Notes under the pieces: model-generated
Seen by the model: only the letters and a program-made list of their open reading frames with translations
Databases searched by the model: none
Told to the model about the DNA's origin: nothing
Shown: one piece after another, positions 3,824 through 20,129 of the stretch
Position numbering within the stretch: position 1 is the first letter of the stretch
Layout of the letters: every line of letters starts with the position of its first letter
Origin: a virus
Lineage: Duplodnaviria > Heunggongvirae > Uroviricota > Caudoviricetes
Virus record (IMG/VR): IMGVR_UViG_2534681762_000006
Length of the DNA: 20,129 nt
Strand: one strand, 5' to 3'
Program-made: the position numbers and the translations under genes

Positions 3824-4639
3824 TCACCGTACAGTCGGTGATATTGCCTGCCCCCTGATTGCCTTCTGGAAAATCTTAAACTCCAGAGTGACGCTACCAC
3901 CACCACTAGGCATATCAATAACTGCACTGTAACTACCGGGAATGGCCCCTTTAGTTTCTCTGGATGCGATTAATACGCCGTTTTTGCGAACTTCAAAACC
4001 ATAACCCGTGTATCGCGTGCCTCCCGAGTTATTTCCGCTCCCCGGATCGTCATACGCTATACCGTTAAAAATAATGGGCGGAATAATAATCTGGCGGTCA
4101 AAGTTATGATCATCGCTGATGGTGACTGTAACCGTACCGTCTGGTGTTTCCGTGTTACCCCACGTACCGACTTTTTTCGGGAAGGCTTTTGATACAGCTT
4201 TAACGAAATCCCCTCTGACCTGGGTCGCCTCCAGCATGCCCTTAATCGTACAGTTCTGGTTAATCGTGACATTGTTGAGCGTTCCTGAGTTCGCATTCAC
4301 ACTGCCACTGATATCCGCATTTTTAGCGGTCAGCTTTCCGTCTGATGTCAGGGAAAATACCGGAGGACTGCCACCACTGGTAATGGTGGGGGCCGTCAGG
4401 CGCTTCAGGAACACGTCGTTCATGAATATCTGATTGCCCTGCGCCACAAACATCGGCGTTTCATTCCCGTTTGCCGGGTCAATAAATGCGATACGGTTAG
4501 CGGCAACCAGAAACTGACTCAGTTTGCCTTCCTCCGTGTCCTCCATGCTGAGGCCAATACCCGCGACATAATGTTTGCCGTCTTTGGTCTGCTCAATTTT
4601 GACAGCCCACATGGCATTCCACTTATCGTTGGCGTCCTT
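3824..4639 (-). CDS. J: host specificity protein J, C-terminal receptor-binding segment, lying downstream of an in-frame TGA
   Basis: Same reading frame as ORF 4640..7195. The codons after the TGA read [81 protein letters not shown], which matches the lambda J C-terminal region as I recall it. The last ~150 aa diverge from lambda. Confidence 0.85.
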
Positions 4640-7926: not shown

Positions 7927-8567
7927 TTGTCGGTGTACCTCTCTCGTTTGCTCAGTTGTTCAGGAATATGGTGCAGCAGCTCGCCGTCGCCGCAGTAAAT
8001 TGCGGCGTGATTCGGCACTGATGAACCAAAACAGCACAGCAGCACATCGCCCGGCTGTGCCGCTGACAACGGCACCTGATACAGCCCCGTCGCCTCCAGA
8101 TTATCCAGATAGAGATTCTGGCCGTGACGCCACCAGTCATCCTCACGATAAAAGTCCGGCATCTCAATCCCCGCCAGATGATAAGCATCCCGGAACAGTG
8201 TGTAACAGTCCGTCACACCGTGCTCAAAGCGCCGCCCGGAAAGATGCGGCACACAGCGGAACTTATGAATCGTCCCCCGGCAGACCAGCCACCACGGCAA
8301 ATCACTCTGCACCTGCAGCCGCCGGTCGGCCTCACTCAGCCAGGGCAGACCACCGGGGTGGCTGTGGACCAGCGCCACAATCTCACCCTGCATTTCTGCC
8401 TGCAGCCAGTCTTCCGGCGACATACGGAAATACGCCTCCGGCTCACCGGAGATATTCACGCAGGGAAAATATCTTTCCCCCTCCGGCGTGCTTACCACGA
8501 AGCCGCACGACTCCGCTGGCGCACATCGCCGGGCGTGCGCCAGAATCGCTGATTCTGTCTGTGTCAT
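7824..8567 (-). CDS. K: tail tip assembly protein K (MPN/JAB plus NlpC/P60 domains); long form 247 aa from ATG at 8565-8567, lambda-annotated short form 199 aa from ATG at 8421-8423
   Basis: Translation matches lambda gpK. The open frame extends 48 codons upstream of the conventional start with no stop, and that extension contains AESCGFVV, which resembles the conserved Glu of the JAMM motif that precedes HSHPGG. Confidence 0.85.
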   Translation of the reverse strand: MTQTESAILAHARRCAPAESCGFVVSTPEGERYFPCVNISGEPEAYFRMSPEDWLQAEMQGEIVALVHSHPGGLPWLSEADRRLQVQSDLPWWLVCRGTIHKFRCVPHLSGRRFEHGVTDCYTLFRDAYHLAGIEMPDFYREDDWWRHGQNLYLDNLEATGLYQVPLSAAQPGDVLLCCFGSSVPNHAAIYCGDGELLHHIPEQLSKRERYTDKWQRRTHSLWRHRAWRASAFTGIYNDLVAASTFV

Positions 8568-10301: not shown

Positions 10302-12158
10302 CTAGGTCTTTTTCTGCTCTGACATGACGTTATTCAGCGCCAGCGGATTATCGCCATACTGTTCCTTCAGGCGCTGTTCCGTGGCTTCCCGTTCTGCCTG
10401 CCGGTCAGTCAGCCCCCGGCTTTTCGCATCAATGGCGGCCCGTTTTGCCCGTTGCTGCTGTGCGAATTTATCCGCCTGCTGCGCCAGCGCGTTCAGGCGC
10501 TCCTGATACGTAACCTTGTCGCCAAGTGCAGCCAGCTGGCGTTTGTACTCCAGCGTCTCATCTTTATGCGCCAGCAGGGATTTCTCCTGTGCGGACAGCT
10601 GGCGACGTTGTGCCGCCTCCTCCAGTACCGCGAACTGACTTTCTGCCTTCCACAAATCCCGGCGCTGCTGGCTGATTTTCTCATTCGCTCCGGCATGCTT
10701 CTCCAGCGTCCGGAGTTCTGCCTGAAGCGTCAGCAGGGCAGCATGAGCACTGTCTTCCTGACGATCGCCCGCAGACACCTTCACGCCGGACTGTTTCGGC
10801 TTTTTCAGCGTCGCTTCATAATCCTTTTTCGCCGCCGCCATCAGCGTGTTGTAATCCGCCTGCAGGATTTTCCCGTCTTTCAGTGCCTTGTTCAGTTCTT
10901 CCTGACGGGCGGTATATTTCTCCAGCGGCGTCTGCAGCCGTTCGTAAGCCTTCTGCGCCTCTTCGGTATATTTCAGCCGTGACGCTTCGGTATCGCTCTG
11001 CTGCTGCGCATTTTTGTCCTGTTGAGTCTGCTGCTCAGCCTTCTTTCGGGCGGCTTCAAGCGCAAGACGGGCCTTTTCACGATCATCCCAGTAACGCGCC
11101 CGCGCTTCATCGTTAACAAAATAATCATCCTTGCGCAGATTCCAGATGTCGTCTGCTTTCTTAAACGCAGCCTCTGCCTTAATCAGCATCTCCTGCGCGG
11201 TATCAGGACGACCAATATCCAGCACCGCATCCCACATGGATTTGAATGCCCGTGCTGTCCTGTCTGCCCAGGTTTCCAGCGTGCCCATGTTCTCTTTCAA
11301 GCGTCGGGTCTGGTCATCAAACCCTTTCGTTGCGGCCTCGTTCGCCGCCTGCAATGCCCCGGCTTCATCGCCGGAACGCTGCAACTGAGCAACATACGCA
11401 ATCTGCTCCGCCGTCACGTTATGGAACTGGCGTGCCATCGCCGTCAGCCCCGACGTCGGGTCTGTGGTCAGCTTCCCGAAGGCTTCAGCGACCTTGTCCA
11501 CCTCCACGCCGGATGCAGAGGAGAAACGCGCCACACTCTGGCTGATGGACGCAATCTGAGCCTCACCGCTTACCCCCGCCTTAACCAGTGCGCTGAGTGA
11601 CTCGCTGGTCTGGTTAAACGTCAGCCCTGCCGCCTGCCCGGCTCTGGACAGGACCAGCATACGATCTGCCGTCAGTCCCGCCTGATTGCCGGAAAGGACC
11701 AGCGTTTTGTTGAAATCGGACAGGGTTGAGTTGCCCTGATACCAGGCATACGCCAGCGCTCCGGTCGCCACCGCCAGCGAGGTAGCCCCCACCATCGGCA
11801 GGGTGATCGCACCGGCAAGCCCCCGGAACATGGGGATCATCCCGCCGAAGGAGTCCTTCACCTGACCCCCCTGTTGCAGCAGGATCAGCCACGGACTTTG
11901 CCCGCCTGCAAGCTGCGTGGCCACGTCAGTGAACTGCGCAGGCAGCATACGCATGGCGGCTTTATACTGCCCGACGGAAATTCCCGCTTTCTGTGCAGCC
12001 AGCGCCTGCCGGTTCATCGACTGTTCAACGACTGCCGCTGTTTTTTTCGCATCACTTTCCGTACCGGAAAAATGACGCCTGACTCTGGCCATCTGCTCGT
12101 CAAATCTGGCCGCATCCAGACTCAAATCAACGACCAGATCGCCTACCGGTTCAGCCAT
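10302..12158 (-). CDS. H: tail tape measure protein H, N-terminal 618 codons, ending at an in-frame TAG (10302-10304)
   Basis: Starts MAEPVGDLVVDLSLDAARFDEQMARVRRHFSGTESDAKKTAAVVEQS. The segments total 618 + 1 + 234 = 853 codons, exactly the lambda gpH length. The stop sits where I recall Trp in lambda (...MSEQKKT-W-AAEDQL). Confidence 0.9.
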   Translation of the reverse strand: MAEPVGDLVVDLSLDAARFDEQMARVRRHFSGTESDAKKTAAVVEQSMNRQALAAQKAGISVGQYKAAMRMLPAQFTDVATQLAGGQSPWLILLQQGGQVKDSFGGMIPMFRGLAGAITLPMVGATSLAVATGALAYAWYQGNSTLSDFNKTLVLSGNQAGLTADRMLVLSRAGQAAGLTFNQTSESLSALVKAGVSGEAQIASISQSVARFSSASGVEVDKVAEAFGKLTTDPTSGLTAMARQFHNVTAEQIAYVAQLQRSGDEAGALQAANEAATKGFDDQTRRLKENMGTLETWADRTARAFKSMWDAVLDIGRPDTAQEMLIKAEAAFKKADDIWNLRKDDYFVNDEARARYWDDREKARLALEAARKKAEQQTQQDKNAQQQSDTEASRLKYTEEAQKAYERLQTPLEKYTARQEELNKALKDGKILQADYNTLMAAAKKDYEATLKKPKQSGVKVSAGDRQEDSAHAALLTLQAELRTLEKHAGANEKISQQRRDLWKAESQFAVLEEAAQRRQLSAQEKSLLAHKDETLEYKRQLAALGDKVTYQERLNALAQQADKFAQQQRAKRAAIDAKSRGLTDRQAEREATEQRLKEQYGDNPLALNNVMSEQKKT

Positions 12159-15536: not shown

Positions 15537-15572
15537 TTACGCCAGTTGTACGGACACGAACTCATCAGGATC
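15537..15572 (-). pseudogene. E: 3-prime remnant of major capsid gene E (last 11 codons DPDEFVSVQLA plus stop), separated from the rest of E by the IS66 insertion
   Basis: Hand translation of the minus strand gives GAT CCT GAT GAG TTC GTG TCC GTA CAA CTG GCG TAA. It is contiguous with the E fragment at 18661.. once the IS and one TSD copy are removed. Confidence 0.85.
15565..15572. repeat. target-site duplication TCAGGATC, left copy
   Basis: Identical 8-mer immediately outside both IS ends. Removing the IS and one copy rebuilds an uninterrupted E sequence (gaactcatcaggatcagccaacag on the plus strand). Confidence 0.9.
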
Positions 15573-15657
15573 GTAACCGTCTCATTTAAACCGTCTTTCG
15601 CCTCCCTTTCCTGTTTCCGATACTAATGTCCATTTTCGCAGTAAAGGGACATTTAAG

Positions 15658-16308
15658 ATGAATGCACGAAAAGCGGTACTGGCAGACAATCCGGAATTGA
15701 TCCTGCGTGTGCTACAACTGAGATTTGACGAGTCACTGTCGTACCCGCGCATTTCTGCGCAGACCGGTATCAGCAAAACCGCCATTTTTTCTCTGGTGAG
15801 GCGATTTCACCAGGTATTCACTGACTGGCCTCTTTCCGGAGAATATTCCTGCGTGCAACTGGCCCGGGCTCTGTTCCCGGGGCGATACCCTTCAGCCCCG
15901 ACAGTGACTCAGCCTGTGAAAACAGAGAAAATCCGCCGGAACCGATTTTCACCGGAGTTTAAATGGAGGCTTGTTCAGCAAACTCTTTTACCCGGTGCCT
16001 GTGTCGCACAAATAGCTCGTGAGAACGGAATCAACGATAACCTGCTCTTTAACTGGCGGCATCTCTGGCGTAACGGCGGCCTGCAGCCGACCGGCGAACA
16101 TGAAACATCGCTACTTCCCGTGACGTTAACTCCGGAGCCGGATAATAAAATCCCGGCACCAGTGCAGATACCTGAACAGATAAATACACCGCCCGACAGT
16201 CTGTGCTGTGAGCTGGTTCTGCCGGCCGGAACTCTCAGGCTGAAAGGTGAACTGACACCGGCGTTATTACAGACACTTATCCGCGAAATGAAAGGGAGCA
16301 GCCACTAA
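15658..16308 (+). CDS. tnpA: IS66-family accessory protein TnpA (Orf1), helix-turn-helix
   Basis: 216-aa ORF, first gene of the IS. Its stop overlaps the tnpB start (ATGA). Contains a transposase-like helix-turn-helix region (RRNRFSPEFKWRLVQQTLLPGACVAQIARENGINDNLLFNWR). Confidence 0.75.
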   Translation: MNARKAVLADNPELILRVLQLRFDESLSYPRISAQTGISKTAIFSLVRRFHQVFTDWPLSGEYSCVQLARALFPGRYPSAPTVTQPVKTEKIRRNRFSPEFKWRLVQQTLLPGACVAQIARENGINDNLLFNWRHLWRNGGLQPTGEHETSLLPVTLTPEPDNKIPAPVQIPEQINTPPDSLCCELVLPAGTLRLKGELTPALLQTLIREMKGSSH

Positions 16309-16655
16309 TGATATCTCTCCCTGCCGGTTCGCGTATCTGGCTGGTTGCCGGTATCACCGACATGCGAAATGGTTTTAACGGCCTGGCATCAAAAGTTCAG
16401 AACGTCCTGAAGGATGACCCGTTCTCCGGGCATCTGTTCATCTTCCGCGGACGCCGGGGTGACCAGATAAAAGTGTTGTGGGCTGACAGTGACGGACTGT
16501 GCCTCTTCACCAAACGCCTGGAGCGGGGCCGCTTCGTCTGGCCGGTTACCCGTGACGGCAAGGTGCACCTTACTCCGGCTCAGTTATCTATGCTTCTTGA
16601 AGGTATCAACTGGAAGCACCCGAAACGAACGGAACGCGCTGGCATCCGCATATAA
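16308..16655 (+). CDS. tnpB: IS66-family protein TnpB (Orf2)
   Basis: 115 aa: MISLPAGSRIWLVAGITDMRNGFNGLASKVQNVLKDDPFSGHLFIFRGRRGDQIKVLWADSDGLCLFTKRLERGRFVWP, the typical IS66 Orf2. Confidence 0.88.
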   Translation: MISLPAGSRIWLVAGITDMRNGFNGLASKVQNVLKDDPFSGHLFIFRGRRGDQIKVLWADSDGLCLFTKRLERGRFVWPVTRDGKVHLTPAQLSMLLEGINWKHPKRTERAGIRI

Positions 16656-16674
16656 CCCGTTGTAAAGTGAGGAT

Positions 16675-18228
16675 ATGGACACCTCACTTGCTCATGAGAA
16701 TGCCCGCCTGCGGGCACTGTTGCAGACGCAACAGGACACCATCCGCCAGATGGCGAAATACAACCGCCTGCTCTCACAGCGGGTGGCGGCTTATGCTTCC
16801 GAAATCAACCGGCTGAAGGCGCTGGTTGCGAAACTGCAGCGCATGCAGTTCGGTAAAAGCTCAGAAAAACTTCGCGCTAAAACCGAACGGCAGATACAGG
16901 AAGCCCAGGAGCGAATCAGCGCACTTCAGGAAGAAATGGCGGAAACGCTGGGTGAGCAATATGACCCGGTACTGCCATCCGCCCTGCGCCAGTCTTCAGC
17001 CCGTAAGCCGTTACCGGCCTCACTTCCCCGTGAAACCCGGGTCATCCGGCCGGAAGAGGAATGCTGCCCGGCCTGTGGTGGTGACCTCAGTCCTCTGGGG
17101 TGTGATGTGTCAGAGCAACTGGAGCTTATCAGCAGCGCTTTTAAGGTTATCGAAACACAACGTCCGAAACTGGCCTGTTGCCGGTGCGACCATATCGTGC
17201 AGGCACCAGTACCTTCAAAACCCATTGCACGCAGTTATGCCGGAGCGGGGCTTCTGGCTCATATCGTCACCGGGAAGTATGCAGACCATCTGCCGTTATA
17301 CCGCCAGTCAGAAATATACCTTCGTCAGGGCGTGGAACTGAGCCGCGCCACGCTGGGGCGCTGGACCGGTGCCGTTGCTGAACTGCTGGAGCCGCTGTAT
17401 GACGTGCTGCGCCAGTATGTGCTGATGCCCGGTAAAGTCCATGCGGATGATATCCCCGTTCCGGTCCAGGAGCCGGGCAGTGGTAAAACAAGAACTGCCC
17501 GGCTGTGGGTCTATGTCCGTGATGACCGTAACGCCGGTTCACAGATGCCCCCGGCGGTCTGGTTCGCGTACAGCCCGGACCGGAAAGGTATCCATCCACA
17601 GAATCACCTGGCCGGTTACAGCGGTGTGCTTCAGGCAGATGCTTACGGTGGTTACCGGGCGTTATACGAATCCGGCAGAATAACGGAAGCCGCGTGTATG
17701 GCCCATGCCCGGAGAAAAATCCACGATGTGCATGCAAGAGTGCCAACCGACATCACCACGGAAGCCCTGCAGCGTATCGGTGAACTGTATGTCATCGAGG
17801 CAGAAGTCCGGGGATGTTCAGCAGAACAGCGTCTGGCAGCAAGAAAAGCCAGAGCGGCTCCACTGATGCAGTCACTGTATGACTGGATACAGGAACAGAT
17901 GAAAACACTGTCGCGTCACTCGGATACGGCAAAAGCGTTCGCATACCTGCTGAAACAGTGGGAGGCCCTGAACGTGTACTGCAGTAATGGCTGGGTGGAA
18001 ATCGACAACAACATCGCAGAGAACGCCTTACGGGGAGTGGCCGTAGGCCGGAGAAACTGGCTCTTCGCGGGTTCCGACAGCGGTGGCGAACATGCGGCGG
18101 TGTTGTACTCGCTGATCGGCACATGCCGTCTGAACAATGTAGAGTCCAGAAAAATGGCTTGCGTTACGTTATTGAGCATATCCAGGACTGGCCGGCAAAC
18201 CGGGTACGCGAATCTGTTGCCCTGGTAA
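16675..18228 (+). CDS. tnpC: IS66-family DDE transposase TnpC, C-terminus frameshifted inside the first unit of the tandem duplication
   Basis: 517-aa ORF with an N-terminal coiled-coil and a CxxC...CxxC zinc-ribbon-like motif (CPACGG...CCRCDH). It ends ...[34 protein letters not shown], whereas the duplicated unit and the second IS copy read ...[37 protein letters not shown](T/S)SQ. Confidence 0.88.
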
Positions 18229-18660
18229 AGTTGATCTGACTTCTCAGTAAATATCAATACGGTTCTGGCGAGCCGCTTACAGATGAAAACACTGTCGCGT
18301 CACTCGGATACGGCAAAAGCGTTCGCATACCTGCTGAAACAGTGGGAGGCCCTGAACGTGTACTGCAGTAATGGCTGGGTGGAAATCGACAACAACATCG
18401 CAGAGAACGCCTTACGGGGAGTGGCCGTAGGCCGGAAAAACTGGCTCTTCGCGGGTTCCGACAGCGGTGGCGAACATGCGGCGGTGTTGTACTCGCTGAT
18501 CGGCACATGCCGTCTGAACAATGTAGAGCCAGAAAAATGGCTGCGTTACGTTATTGAGCATATCCAGGACTGGCCGGCAAACCGGGTACGCGATCTGTTG
18601 CCCTGGAAAGTTGATCTGACTTCTCAGTAAATATCAATACGGTTCTGGCGAGCCGCTTAC
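17897..18660 (+). repeat. direct tandem duplication of the IS66 right end: unit 1 at 17897..18280 (384 bp) and unit 2 at 18281..18660 (380 bp), each ending in the right inverted repeat
   Basis: Unit 2 repeats unit 1 from agatgaaaacactgtcgcgtcactcgg through gagccgcttac. Unit 1 differs by four 1-nt insertions (gagtccag vs gagccag; ggcttgcg vs ggctgcg; gcgaatctg vs gcgatctg; ccctggtaaag vs ccctggaaag) and one substitution (ggagaaactgg vs ggaaaaactgg). Confidence 0.9.
18283..18630 (+). CDS. TnpC C-terminal fragment (115 aa) encoded by duplication unit 2; an intact version of the transposase C-terminus
   Basis: [115 protein letters not shown]. Near-identical to the C-terminus of the second IS copy. 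Confidence 0.7.
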   Translation: MKTLSRHSDTAKAFAYLLKQWEALNVYCSNGWVEIDNNIAENALRGVAVGRKNWLFAGSDSGGEHAAVLYSLIGTCRLNNVEPEKWLRYVIEHIQDWPANRVRDLLPWKVDLTSQ

Positions 18661-18668
18661 TCAGGATC
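18661..18668. repeat. target-site duplication TCAGGATC, right copy
   Basis: See the left copy. 8 bp is the characteristic target-site duplication length for IS66-family elements. Confidence 0.9.
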
Positions 18669-19398
18669 AGCCAACAGCATCAGCGGTGCTGACTGAATCA
18701 TGGTGAACTCACGCGCCGGATCGCCGGTGGTCACCCAGTTTTTCGGGTAGCGGGCAGAGGCGTTAATACCTTCGCGCTGTGCGTCCGCATCCTGAATGCA
18801 GCCATAGGTGCGCAGACCGCGTGCCTGAGTGTTCCCCAGCACCATCGTGTTGTCCGGCAGGAAGTTCTTTTTGACGTCGTTTTCCACGTACTGTCCGGAA
18901 TACACGACGATCGCCGTATCGCCATACATCCCCTTATAGGACACCGCTTCGCCCAGGTCTTTTACCGCTGTCTCCAGCTCGGAATTAGAGCCGCGACGGG
19001 TATCCAGCTTCTCCTTGACGGCTTTGAAGGAACGGAACAGCGCCCAGCCTTTCGGATCAAACACGATGATATTCACCACGCCGCTGGCGTTCAGCGCGTA
19101 GGCTTCGATATCGTCGGTCGGGTCATACGTGGACTTGTCACGCTTGCTCCACTCCGTGCCGCCGGACTGCGTGATGTTGTTCGCCGCACTGCGGCCCATA
19201 TCCACCTCAACCGGATCGAAGGCTTCACCGGTCATGGTGTATTTGCCCTTGAGCACGGCAGAAACTGCCTGCATCTCTTCGACCTGAGCAATGGCCAGCT
19301 CTTCGTCACGCATGTTCTGCAGGATGATGCGACGGCGGCGGTAAGCCGGGTCCGCCAGATTCTGCGGATCTTCATCCGGCAGGCGACGCAGGGTCATC
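18661..19398 (-). pseudogene. E: major capsid protein E, internal fragment (about codons 91-333 of 341), bounded on both sides by IS66 ends
   Basis: ORF 18657..19397 translates to MTLRRLPDEDPQNLADPAYRRRRIILQNMRDEELAIAQVEEMQAVSAVLKGKYTMTGEAFDPVEVDMGRS...MIQSAPLMLLADP, matching lambda gpE from an internal Met. The terminal Glu and TAA stop are created at the IS junction. Confidence 0.88.
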
Positions 19399-20129
19399 GT
19401 AAGCGACTCGTCAGAACCGTATTGATATTTACTGAGAGCTCAGATCAACTTTCCAGGGCAACAGATCGCGTACCCGGTTTGCCGGCCAGTCCTGGATATG
19501 TTCAATGACGTAACGCAGCCACTTTTCTGGCTCCACATTGTTCAGACGGCATGTGCCGATCAGCGAGTACAACACCGCCGCATGTTCACCACCGCTGTCG
19601 GAACCCGCGAACATCCAGTTTTTCCGGCCTACGGCCACTCCCCGTAAGGCGTTCTCTGCGATGTTGTTGTCGATTTCCACCCAGCCATTACTGCAGTACA
19701 CGTTCAGTGCATCCCACTGTTTCAGCAGGTATGCGAACGCTTTTGCCGTATCTGAGTGACGCGACAGTGTTTTCATCTGTTGCTGTATCCAGTCATACAG
19801 TGACTGCATCAGTGGCGCGGCTCTGGCTTTTCTTGCCGCCAGACGCTGTTCTGCTGAACAGCACCGGACCTCTGCCTCGATGGCATACAGTTCACCGATA
19901 CGCTGCAGGGCTTCCGTGGTGATGTAGGTGGGCGCTCTTGCATGCACATCGTGGATTTTTCTCCGGGCATGAGCCATACACGCGGCTTCCGTTATTCTGC
20001 CGGATTCGTATAACGCCCGGTAACCACCGTAAGCATCGGCCTGAAGCACACCGCTGTAACCGGCCAGGTGATTTTGTGGATGGATACCTTTCCGGTCCGG
20101 ACTGTACGCGAACCAGACCGCCGGGGGCA
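19399..20129 (-). mobile_element. second IS66-family copy in inverted orientation, partial (runs off the right edge); its right inverted repeat abuts E at 19399
   Basis: Plus strand at 19399 reads gtaagcgactcgtcagaaccgtattgatatttactgag, the reverse complement of the first copy's right end with 2 mismatches in 38. Internal sequence encodes the TnpC C-terminal half on the minus strand. Confidence 0.85.
19429..20129 (-). CDS. tnpC: IS66-family transposase TnpC, C-terminal portion (5-prime part lies beyond the window)
   Basis: ORF 19429..20049 ((M)[60 protein letters not shown]...KVDLSSQ); the frame stays open upstream to the window edge (...[27 protein letters not shown]). It shows several amino-acid differences from copy 1 (for example VPTDITT vs APTYITT, WEAL vs WDAL, NWLF vs NWMF). 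Confidence 0.85.

Follow-up and report, generated by a model that had tools for sequence, protein, structure and literature searches.

A tandem right-end repeat in an IS66-family element of an Escherichia coli draft contig is probably an assembly product

Results

An IS66-family element in the capsid gene of a decaying lambdoid prophage

The window analyzed here is a stretch of 20,129 bp that corresponds to the complete contig AQEJ01000040.1 of GCA_000355115.2, a 2013 short-read draft assembly of E. coli ThroopD. An IS66-family element is inserted about 30 bp from the 3' end of a lambda-like major capsid gene (Table 1) and contains consecutive tnpA, tnpB and tnpC genes, of which tnpC encodes the DDE transposase (NF033517, 460 bits). 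All three NCBIfam models exceed their cut-offs and the Pfam domains LZ_Tnp_IS66, zf-IS66, DDE_Tnp_IS66 and TnpB_IS66 are matched as well. The terminal inverted repeats are imperfect and start with GTAA (left GTAACCGTCTC..., right GTAAGCGGCTC... as reverse complement). The element is flanked by an 8-bp target-site duplication, as positions 15565-15572 are identical to 18661-18668 and both map to 8001-8008 of the uninterrupted prophage of ETEC H10407 (L001), in which TCAGGATC is single-copy. According to the descriptions in ISfinder, terminal repeats with GTAA and a target duplication of 8 bp are features of the IS66 family.

Table 1. Coordinates of the features in the 20,129-bp window.
Feature	Position	Strand	Remarks
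Left 8-bp target-site duplication TCAGGATC	15565..15572		in 3' end of lambda-like major capsid gene
IS66-family element as assembled, 3,088 bp	15573..18660	+	2,704 bp without the inner unit
tnpA, 216 aa	15658..16308	+	NF038385 IS66_access_TnpA, 285 bits
tnpB, 115 aa	16308..16655	+	NF033819 IS66_TnpB, 129 bits
tnpC as deposited, 517 aa	16675..18228	+	frameshift past residue 490; lacks DDE_Tnp_IS66_C; EMW91560.1
Inner tandem unit (unit 1), 384 nt	17897..18280	+	terminates exactly at IS end ...GCCGCTTAC
Insertion in unit 1, extra T	18145		pairwise alignment
Insertion in unit 1, extra T	18159/60		pairwise alignment
Insertion in unit 1, extra A	18211/12		pairwise alignment
Insertion in unit 1, extra T	18226		pairwise alignment
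Novel junction, IS right terminus to internal tnpC	18257..18304	+	...GAGCCGCTTAC/AGATGAAAACAC...
Outer tandem unit (unit 2), 380 nt	18281..18660	+	adjoins right target duplication
115-aa ORF in unit 2	18283..18630	+	TnpC residues 409-523, canonical C-terminus; translation
Lambda-like major capsid (gpE) fragment, 738 bp	18661..19398	-	Pfam Phage_cap_E; between two IS66-family elements
Second, inverted IS66-family element, right end, ISCro1-like	19399..20129	-	runs off contig end

The capsid fragment opens with the right copy of the target duplication and is followed by a second IS66-family element, which is 99.7-99.9% identical to copies in H10407 and MS 119-7. An independent draft (GCA_002462765.1) contains an 891-bp contig, NKEQ01000157.1, with the same capsid fragment and 77 bp of each IS end, and therefore the double IS insertion around the capsid fragment is real. 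None of the complete E. coli genomes has the junction between the capsid gene and the left IS end, so that a finished version of the locus is absent from this collection. Compared with the ISCro1 of the H10407 prophage, the ISCro1-like element meets the capsid gene 207 bp deeper inside (L001 8739-8945), which indicates either independent insertions in the two strains or an IS-adjacent deletion in ThroopD.

The prophage is an otherwise decaying lambdoid with interruptions in the gpJ, gpI and tape-measure genes. The lesions comprise a -1 change in a T run close to the 3' end of gpJ (3863), an in-frame stop in gpJ (4621-4623; ...EFSKE, stop, KDAN), a -1 change in a C run (7545), with the tail assembly gene gpI split as a result, and an in-frame stop (10302-10304, CTA on the plus strand) that divides the tape-measure gene into ORFs of 618 and 224 aa. 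These lesions fit a defective prophage, and at the two homopolymer sites an assembly error is also possible. In addition, the side tail fibre gene (988 aa, minus strand) harbors a 132-nt tandem repeat with about three copies (1292-1687, 63-91% identical), and in the closest relative, MIN10, this repeat region self-aligns out of register.

The right end of the element is present twice in the deposited contig

A repeat search and MAFFT alignment revealed that the last 380 bp of the element are present as two head-to-tail units, which bears out the initial annotation of a right end of about 380 bp that is doubled in tandem together with its inverted repeat. Both units close with an identical right end of 54 nt, which comprises the terminal inverted repeat. 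No array was reported by TRF, but a 380-nt repeat with 98.7% identity greatly exceeds what chance would produce. AC is shared by the right terminus (...GCTTAC) and the internal site (...GGAAC/AGATG), and since this dinucleotide is found at the end of both junction partners the boundary between the units is ambiguous by 2 nt. The tandem duplication is confirmed as content of the deposited contig, not as structure of the genome.

Pairwise alignment of the two units showed exactly five differences, namely one substitution (G in unit 1 at 18053, A in unit 2) and four insertions of a single nucleotide. We compared these sites with the inverted second IS copy and 15 other homologues, a set that includes one sequence with 70% identity, and found the derived state in unit 1 at all five sites. 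As unit 2 matches the second IS copy and every collected homologue, all changes lie in unit 1; the alignment and the homologues hence agree with the earlier reading that placed all five differences, four of them 1-nt insertions, in a single unit. Unit 2 is 100% identical to IS66 right ends elsewhere (homologues L006, L008-10, L014-16), and the right end next to the capsid fragment in NKEQ01000157.1 also has the clean, insertion-free sequence of unit 2.

Consequences for the transposase reading frame

The frameshift that had been proposed for the inner unit was reproduced by translation: the insertions shift the frame of TnpC behind ...CRLNNVE, and a TAA stop (18226-18228) arises from the last of them, so that TnpC ends after 517 aa. 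The assignment of the canonical C-terminus to the outer unit also holds, as translation yields the 115-aa ORF and unit 2 agrees with the second copy. The deposited gene thus fails to encode a full-length TnpC with the C-terminal domain PF13817, whereas such a protein of 523 aa is obtained when unit 1 is removed. The resulting 2,704-bp element shows 99.63% identity to a copy in the complete genome NZ_CP024263.1 (L016), and its alignments to this copy and to ISCro1 copies are free of gaps. Within the IS66 family the element is an ordinary one and lies near an unnamed 2.7-kb element which is common in ETEC.

Other single frameshifts in the C-terminal part of IS66 TnpC are present in public assemblies (P0031-P0035), and two -1 deletions, located in runs of G and C, are seen in the homologue L012 (5610, 5676). 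IS66 transposases with a frameshift are therefore frequent in databases, and sequencing errors may account for many of them.

Junction and inserted bases are confined to a single contig

For the search of the novel junction we used a 48-nt query, in which any 28-mer seed is forced across the junction. Longer queries of 80 and 54 nt were uninformative, because BLAST linked pieces from either half over 382 bp and 28-mers could seed owing to the AC microhomology. With the 48-nt junction, 5,426 complete E. coli genomes gave four chance matches of 28-32 nt and no full-length one, and a full match was likewise absent among 72,556 plasmids (PLSDB). A query covering 17600-18900 (IS66 plus 240 bp of capsid flank) found about 17,800 matching places in the same 5,426 genomes. 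A 23-nt junction pattern was not found in the GTDB species representatives or the JGI metagenomes.

The inserted bases are equally restricted. For the distal part of unit 1, identity to the 5,426 complete E. coli genomes reached at most 97.9%, every time with four gaps and one mismatch, which means that all complete genomes lack the four insertions. The frameshifted tail was not found in 5.8 billion protein clusters, where the matches were different variants with a single frameshift, and the 517-aa protein occurs on AQEJ01000040.1 only. Both the junction and the variant bases are thus without support in independent sequence, as is expected for a repeat expansion in an assembly.

These results bear on the possibility that the duplication is real and the frameshifts are consensus errors from the assembly of a repeat that exceeds the insert size. 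In this case the inner copy would code for an intact TnpC, and the outer unit would be left as an inert remnant that carries an additional right inverted repeat. Such a structure could arise if the same IS inserted into the first one at ...GGAAC/AGATG... in the same orientation and the left parts then recombined, or by a one-ended attack of the right end with the same outcome. It is attractive that nested insertion plus recombination predicts the structure to the base, that the breakpoint falls exactly at the IS terminus, the site of transposase cleavage, and that a perfect 8-bp target duplication flanks the composite at its outer end. Furthermore, 100-bp reads would cross a true junction, so its assembly would have been possible. 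However, the junction is absent from the complete genomes, plasmids and metagenomes searched, the insertions would still require an assembly error, and the related draft lends no support as its 891-bp contig enters the IS by 77 bp only. Taken together, we consider a real duplication with erroneous frameshifts unlikely.

The changes in unit 1 differ from natural variation

Between the collapsed element and natural copies (L016, L012, L001) there are 176 substitutions and 2 indels, whereas unit 1 differs from unit 2 by one substitution and four insertions; under the assumption of an indel fraction of about 1%, which is taken from the natural copies, the probability of at least four indels in five changes is about 7e-8. 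The four insertions are packed into 82 bp and all five changes into 173 bp, and the remaining 211 bp of the unit are identical. In comparison to its closest complete relatives, the 15.5 kb of prophage on the same contig show two net single-base indels, both of them -1 changes in homopolymer runs. This is the usual kind of natural indel, and the spectrum of unit 1 is not a biological one.

A staggered alignment of two IS66 alleles is unsupported as an explanation for the insertions, since no collected homologue has a substitution at the four insertion sites.

If both the duplication and the frameshifts were real, the disabled tnpC could be repaired by RecA-dependent recombination between the 380-bp repeats, provided that the crossover takes place within the first 248 bp (17897-18144). 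Direct repeats of this length serve well as RecA substrates and the deposited sequence encodes exactly such an arrangement. In the distal halves of the units the differences are not more than 91 nt apart, so that 100-bp reads could separate the two copies. Nevertheless, four +1 insertions and one substitution within 173 bp correspond to no known mutational spectrum: indels make up about 1% of the changes in natural copies, and the natural frameshifts on this contig and in L012 are -1 changes in homopolymers. In addition, AQEJ01000040.1 is the only contig with the insertions and the peptide tail, and there is no sign of selection for a switch device in the host prophage or the IS. This makes it very unlikely that both are genuine.

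One edge of the unit coincides with the IS terminus

One edge of the unit is the exact IS terminus, a repeat boundary, and this terminus is special to two processes only, namely cleavage by the transposase and branching of the assembly graph. Such an endpoint makes an origin by random replication slippage unlikely.

The other edge lies at a point in tnpC (GGAAC/AGATGAAAAC, 17890-17897) where three unrelated structures break within 6 nt. The first is the deposited junction itself. The second consists of remnants on IncFII plasmids, in which an IS91-family end (...CCTATACGTGAAC) abuts AGATG (L006/L008/L009/L010 5985-6000; L014 118-133); GAAC is the target of the IS91 family. The third is a mosaic beside an eatA-like autotransporter gene, in which an ISEc8-like tnpC changes into the present IS at ...GACTC/AGATG (L007, L011 5990-6000). 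This mosaic is rare with two complete records, and plasmid p948 of H10407 has a full ISCro1 beside eatA. The clustering of breaks in part reflects selection bias, as the search used the 115-aa ORF that starts 2 nt downstream, but the site may mark a repeat boundary that confuses assemblers. If ThroopD had a second repeat boundary at this left edge, the unit would form an exact node of the assembly graph.

Scaffold KK037015.1 of GCA_000567445.1 (L006 5287-6378) repeats the same 380-bp right-end unit, in the order IS91 tail, unit positions 1-162, 100 N, unit positions 332-380, the same 200-bp IS91 tail and the full unit. This arrangement looks like a scaffolding loop through the same repeat, and such a loop across an N gap indicates that the unit is troublesome in draft assemblies.

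The altered right end and the AGATG... sequence could also derive from a decayed IS66 copy elsewhere in ThroopD, for example from an IS66-in-IS66 arrangement on a plasmid, and have been joined into a chimeric contig. IS66-family copies are numerous in ETEC, with 14 matching places in the H10407 chromosome and fragments on p948, and remnants or mosaics that start within 6 nt of the AGATG site are known from other genomes. As no other genome has such a decayed right end or the junction, and as a spectrum of insertions would be equally odd for a decayed copy, we regard a chimera of this kind as extremely unlikely.

Discussion

Repeat expansion in a short-read draft

The ThroopD reads were generated in the IGS ETEC project on a HiSeq2000 (100 bp, 300-bp inserts, more than 200x coverage) and assembled with the Celera Assembler (PMC4462620; PMC5469772). 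The initial annotation had left room for an assembly or long-read artefact. The first alternative is favored by the evidence, whereas an insertion error of long reads is ruled out, since the project data are Illumina 100-bp reads only. With 380-384 bp the unit is longer than reads and inserts, so that no read or read pair spans it and its copy number is unverifiable by spanning data; possible read evidence for two units is limited to reads across the novel junction. Repeat expansion and contig ends of low quality are documented classes of assembly errors (PMC2397507), and a unit that is bounded by a repeat edge and exceeds 100-bp reads and 300-bp inserts corresponds to the first of them. We therefore interpret the second copy of the right end as a repeat-expansion misassembly with a poor local consensus, with a probability of roughly 80%. 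The ThroopD genome most likely contains one ordinary 2,704-bp IS66-family element in the capsid gene of a defective lambdoid prophage.

The source and type of the data, the uniqueness of the junction and insertions and the non-biological mutation spectrum are shown by the analysis, and the following assembler steps are inferred. One piece of the assembly would have run from the phage side through the IS and halted at the IS terminus as a repeat boundary. A second piece, anchored in the unique 738-bp capsid fragment, would have reached 380 bp back into the IS, and both pieces may then have been abutted instead of being merged over their 380-bp overlap. The contig consensus of the Celera Assembler can force unitigs to abut when no overlap is found. 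The five differences would accordingly represent consensus errors and not mutations, located where the first piece runs out with poor support; this tail may have been tiled by leftover error-bearing reads at very high coverage.

Several points stand against a misassembly. Insertions are rare in Illumina reads, and four of them in a consensus of more than 200x need a special cause; conceivable are a forced alignment and a spur of error-bearing reads at low coverage. A correct overlap of 380 bp with 100% identity should be easy to find for an assembler. If the inner unit truly differed, an assembler could tell the two units apart, and the deposited contig is what a correct assembly would produce. 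Finally, a structure made by the transposase would likewise break at the IS terminus.

The proposed transposase switch and implications for the database records

It had been suggested initially that a recombination event between the units would remove unit 1 and repair tnpC, and that the arrangement could serve as a reversible on/off state. The first part stands, as a TnpC of 523 aa is encoded without unit 1. The second does not: collapse deletes the unit that bears the frameshifts and a renewed duplication would not recreate them, so the process is one-way only. Judged from the sequence, the two states are not interconvertible, and the duplicated state does not recur, with 0 full matches of the junction in the 5,426 complete E. 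coli genomes and 72,556 plasmids. Irreversible collapse also speaks against the combination of a genuine duplication with genuine frameshifts as an on/off device, and a biological switch for the transposase is not supported. It seems very improbable that duplication and frameshifts are genuine and that IS66 attacked itself by its right end in a nested or one-ended insertion with subsequent recombination, which would have left two right inverted repeats and a transposase that is silent until RecA-dependent collapse allows a one-shot reactivation. If this were true, it would be a small curiosity of IS biology, namely IS66 self-targeting and a one-way reactivation by repeat collapse, and no new kind of system.

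The feature is real in the database record, but probably not in the organism. EMW91560.1, a truncated IS66 transposase, and the neighboring 115-aa "transposase" probably result from an error of the draft assembly, and neither a pseudogene nor a regulatory arrangement should be deduced from them. The main value of this analysis is therefore a warning flag on two deposited protein records.

Comparison with known systems

As in the duplication-collapse systems of heteroresistance and phase variation, direct repeats of 380 bp would recombine with the loss of one unit, and a crossover before 18145 would restore the frame. These systems are reversible or occur as mixed populations, whereas the frameshifted unit would be lost for good here and no second state was observed. 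Nested IS insertion followed by recombination likewise results in a full element and a right-end remnant with the IS terminus as breakpoint. In contrast to nested IS insertions, no left-end junction or internal target duplication is left here and the junction is found in no other genome.

The contig shares with repeat expansion as described in PMC2397507 the extra repeat segment, the limitation by a repeat edge, a unit longer than read and insert, the poor consensus in one copy and the lack of independent support. The signatures of this class are stretched mates, reduced depth and missing junction reads, and the assignment here is based on sequence-level criteria. In contrast to the described class, the consensus errors are of the insertion type, which is unusual for Illumina data.

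In comparison to the other IS66 copies examined, a second right end and a truncated TnpC are found only in the deposited element. The collapsed element resembles the IS66 elements of Enterobacteriaceae in the tnpA-tnpB-tnpC order, the GTAA ends, the 8-bp target duplication and the length of 2,704 bp. It is about 94.5% identical to ISCro1 and shows 99.6% identity to the unnamed 2,704-bp "IS66 family" element of ETEC (e.g., NZ_CP024263.1).
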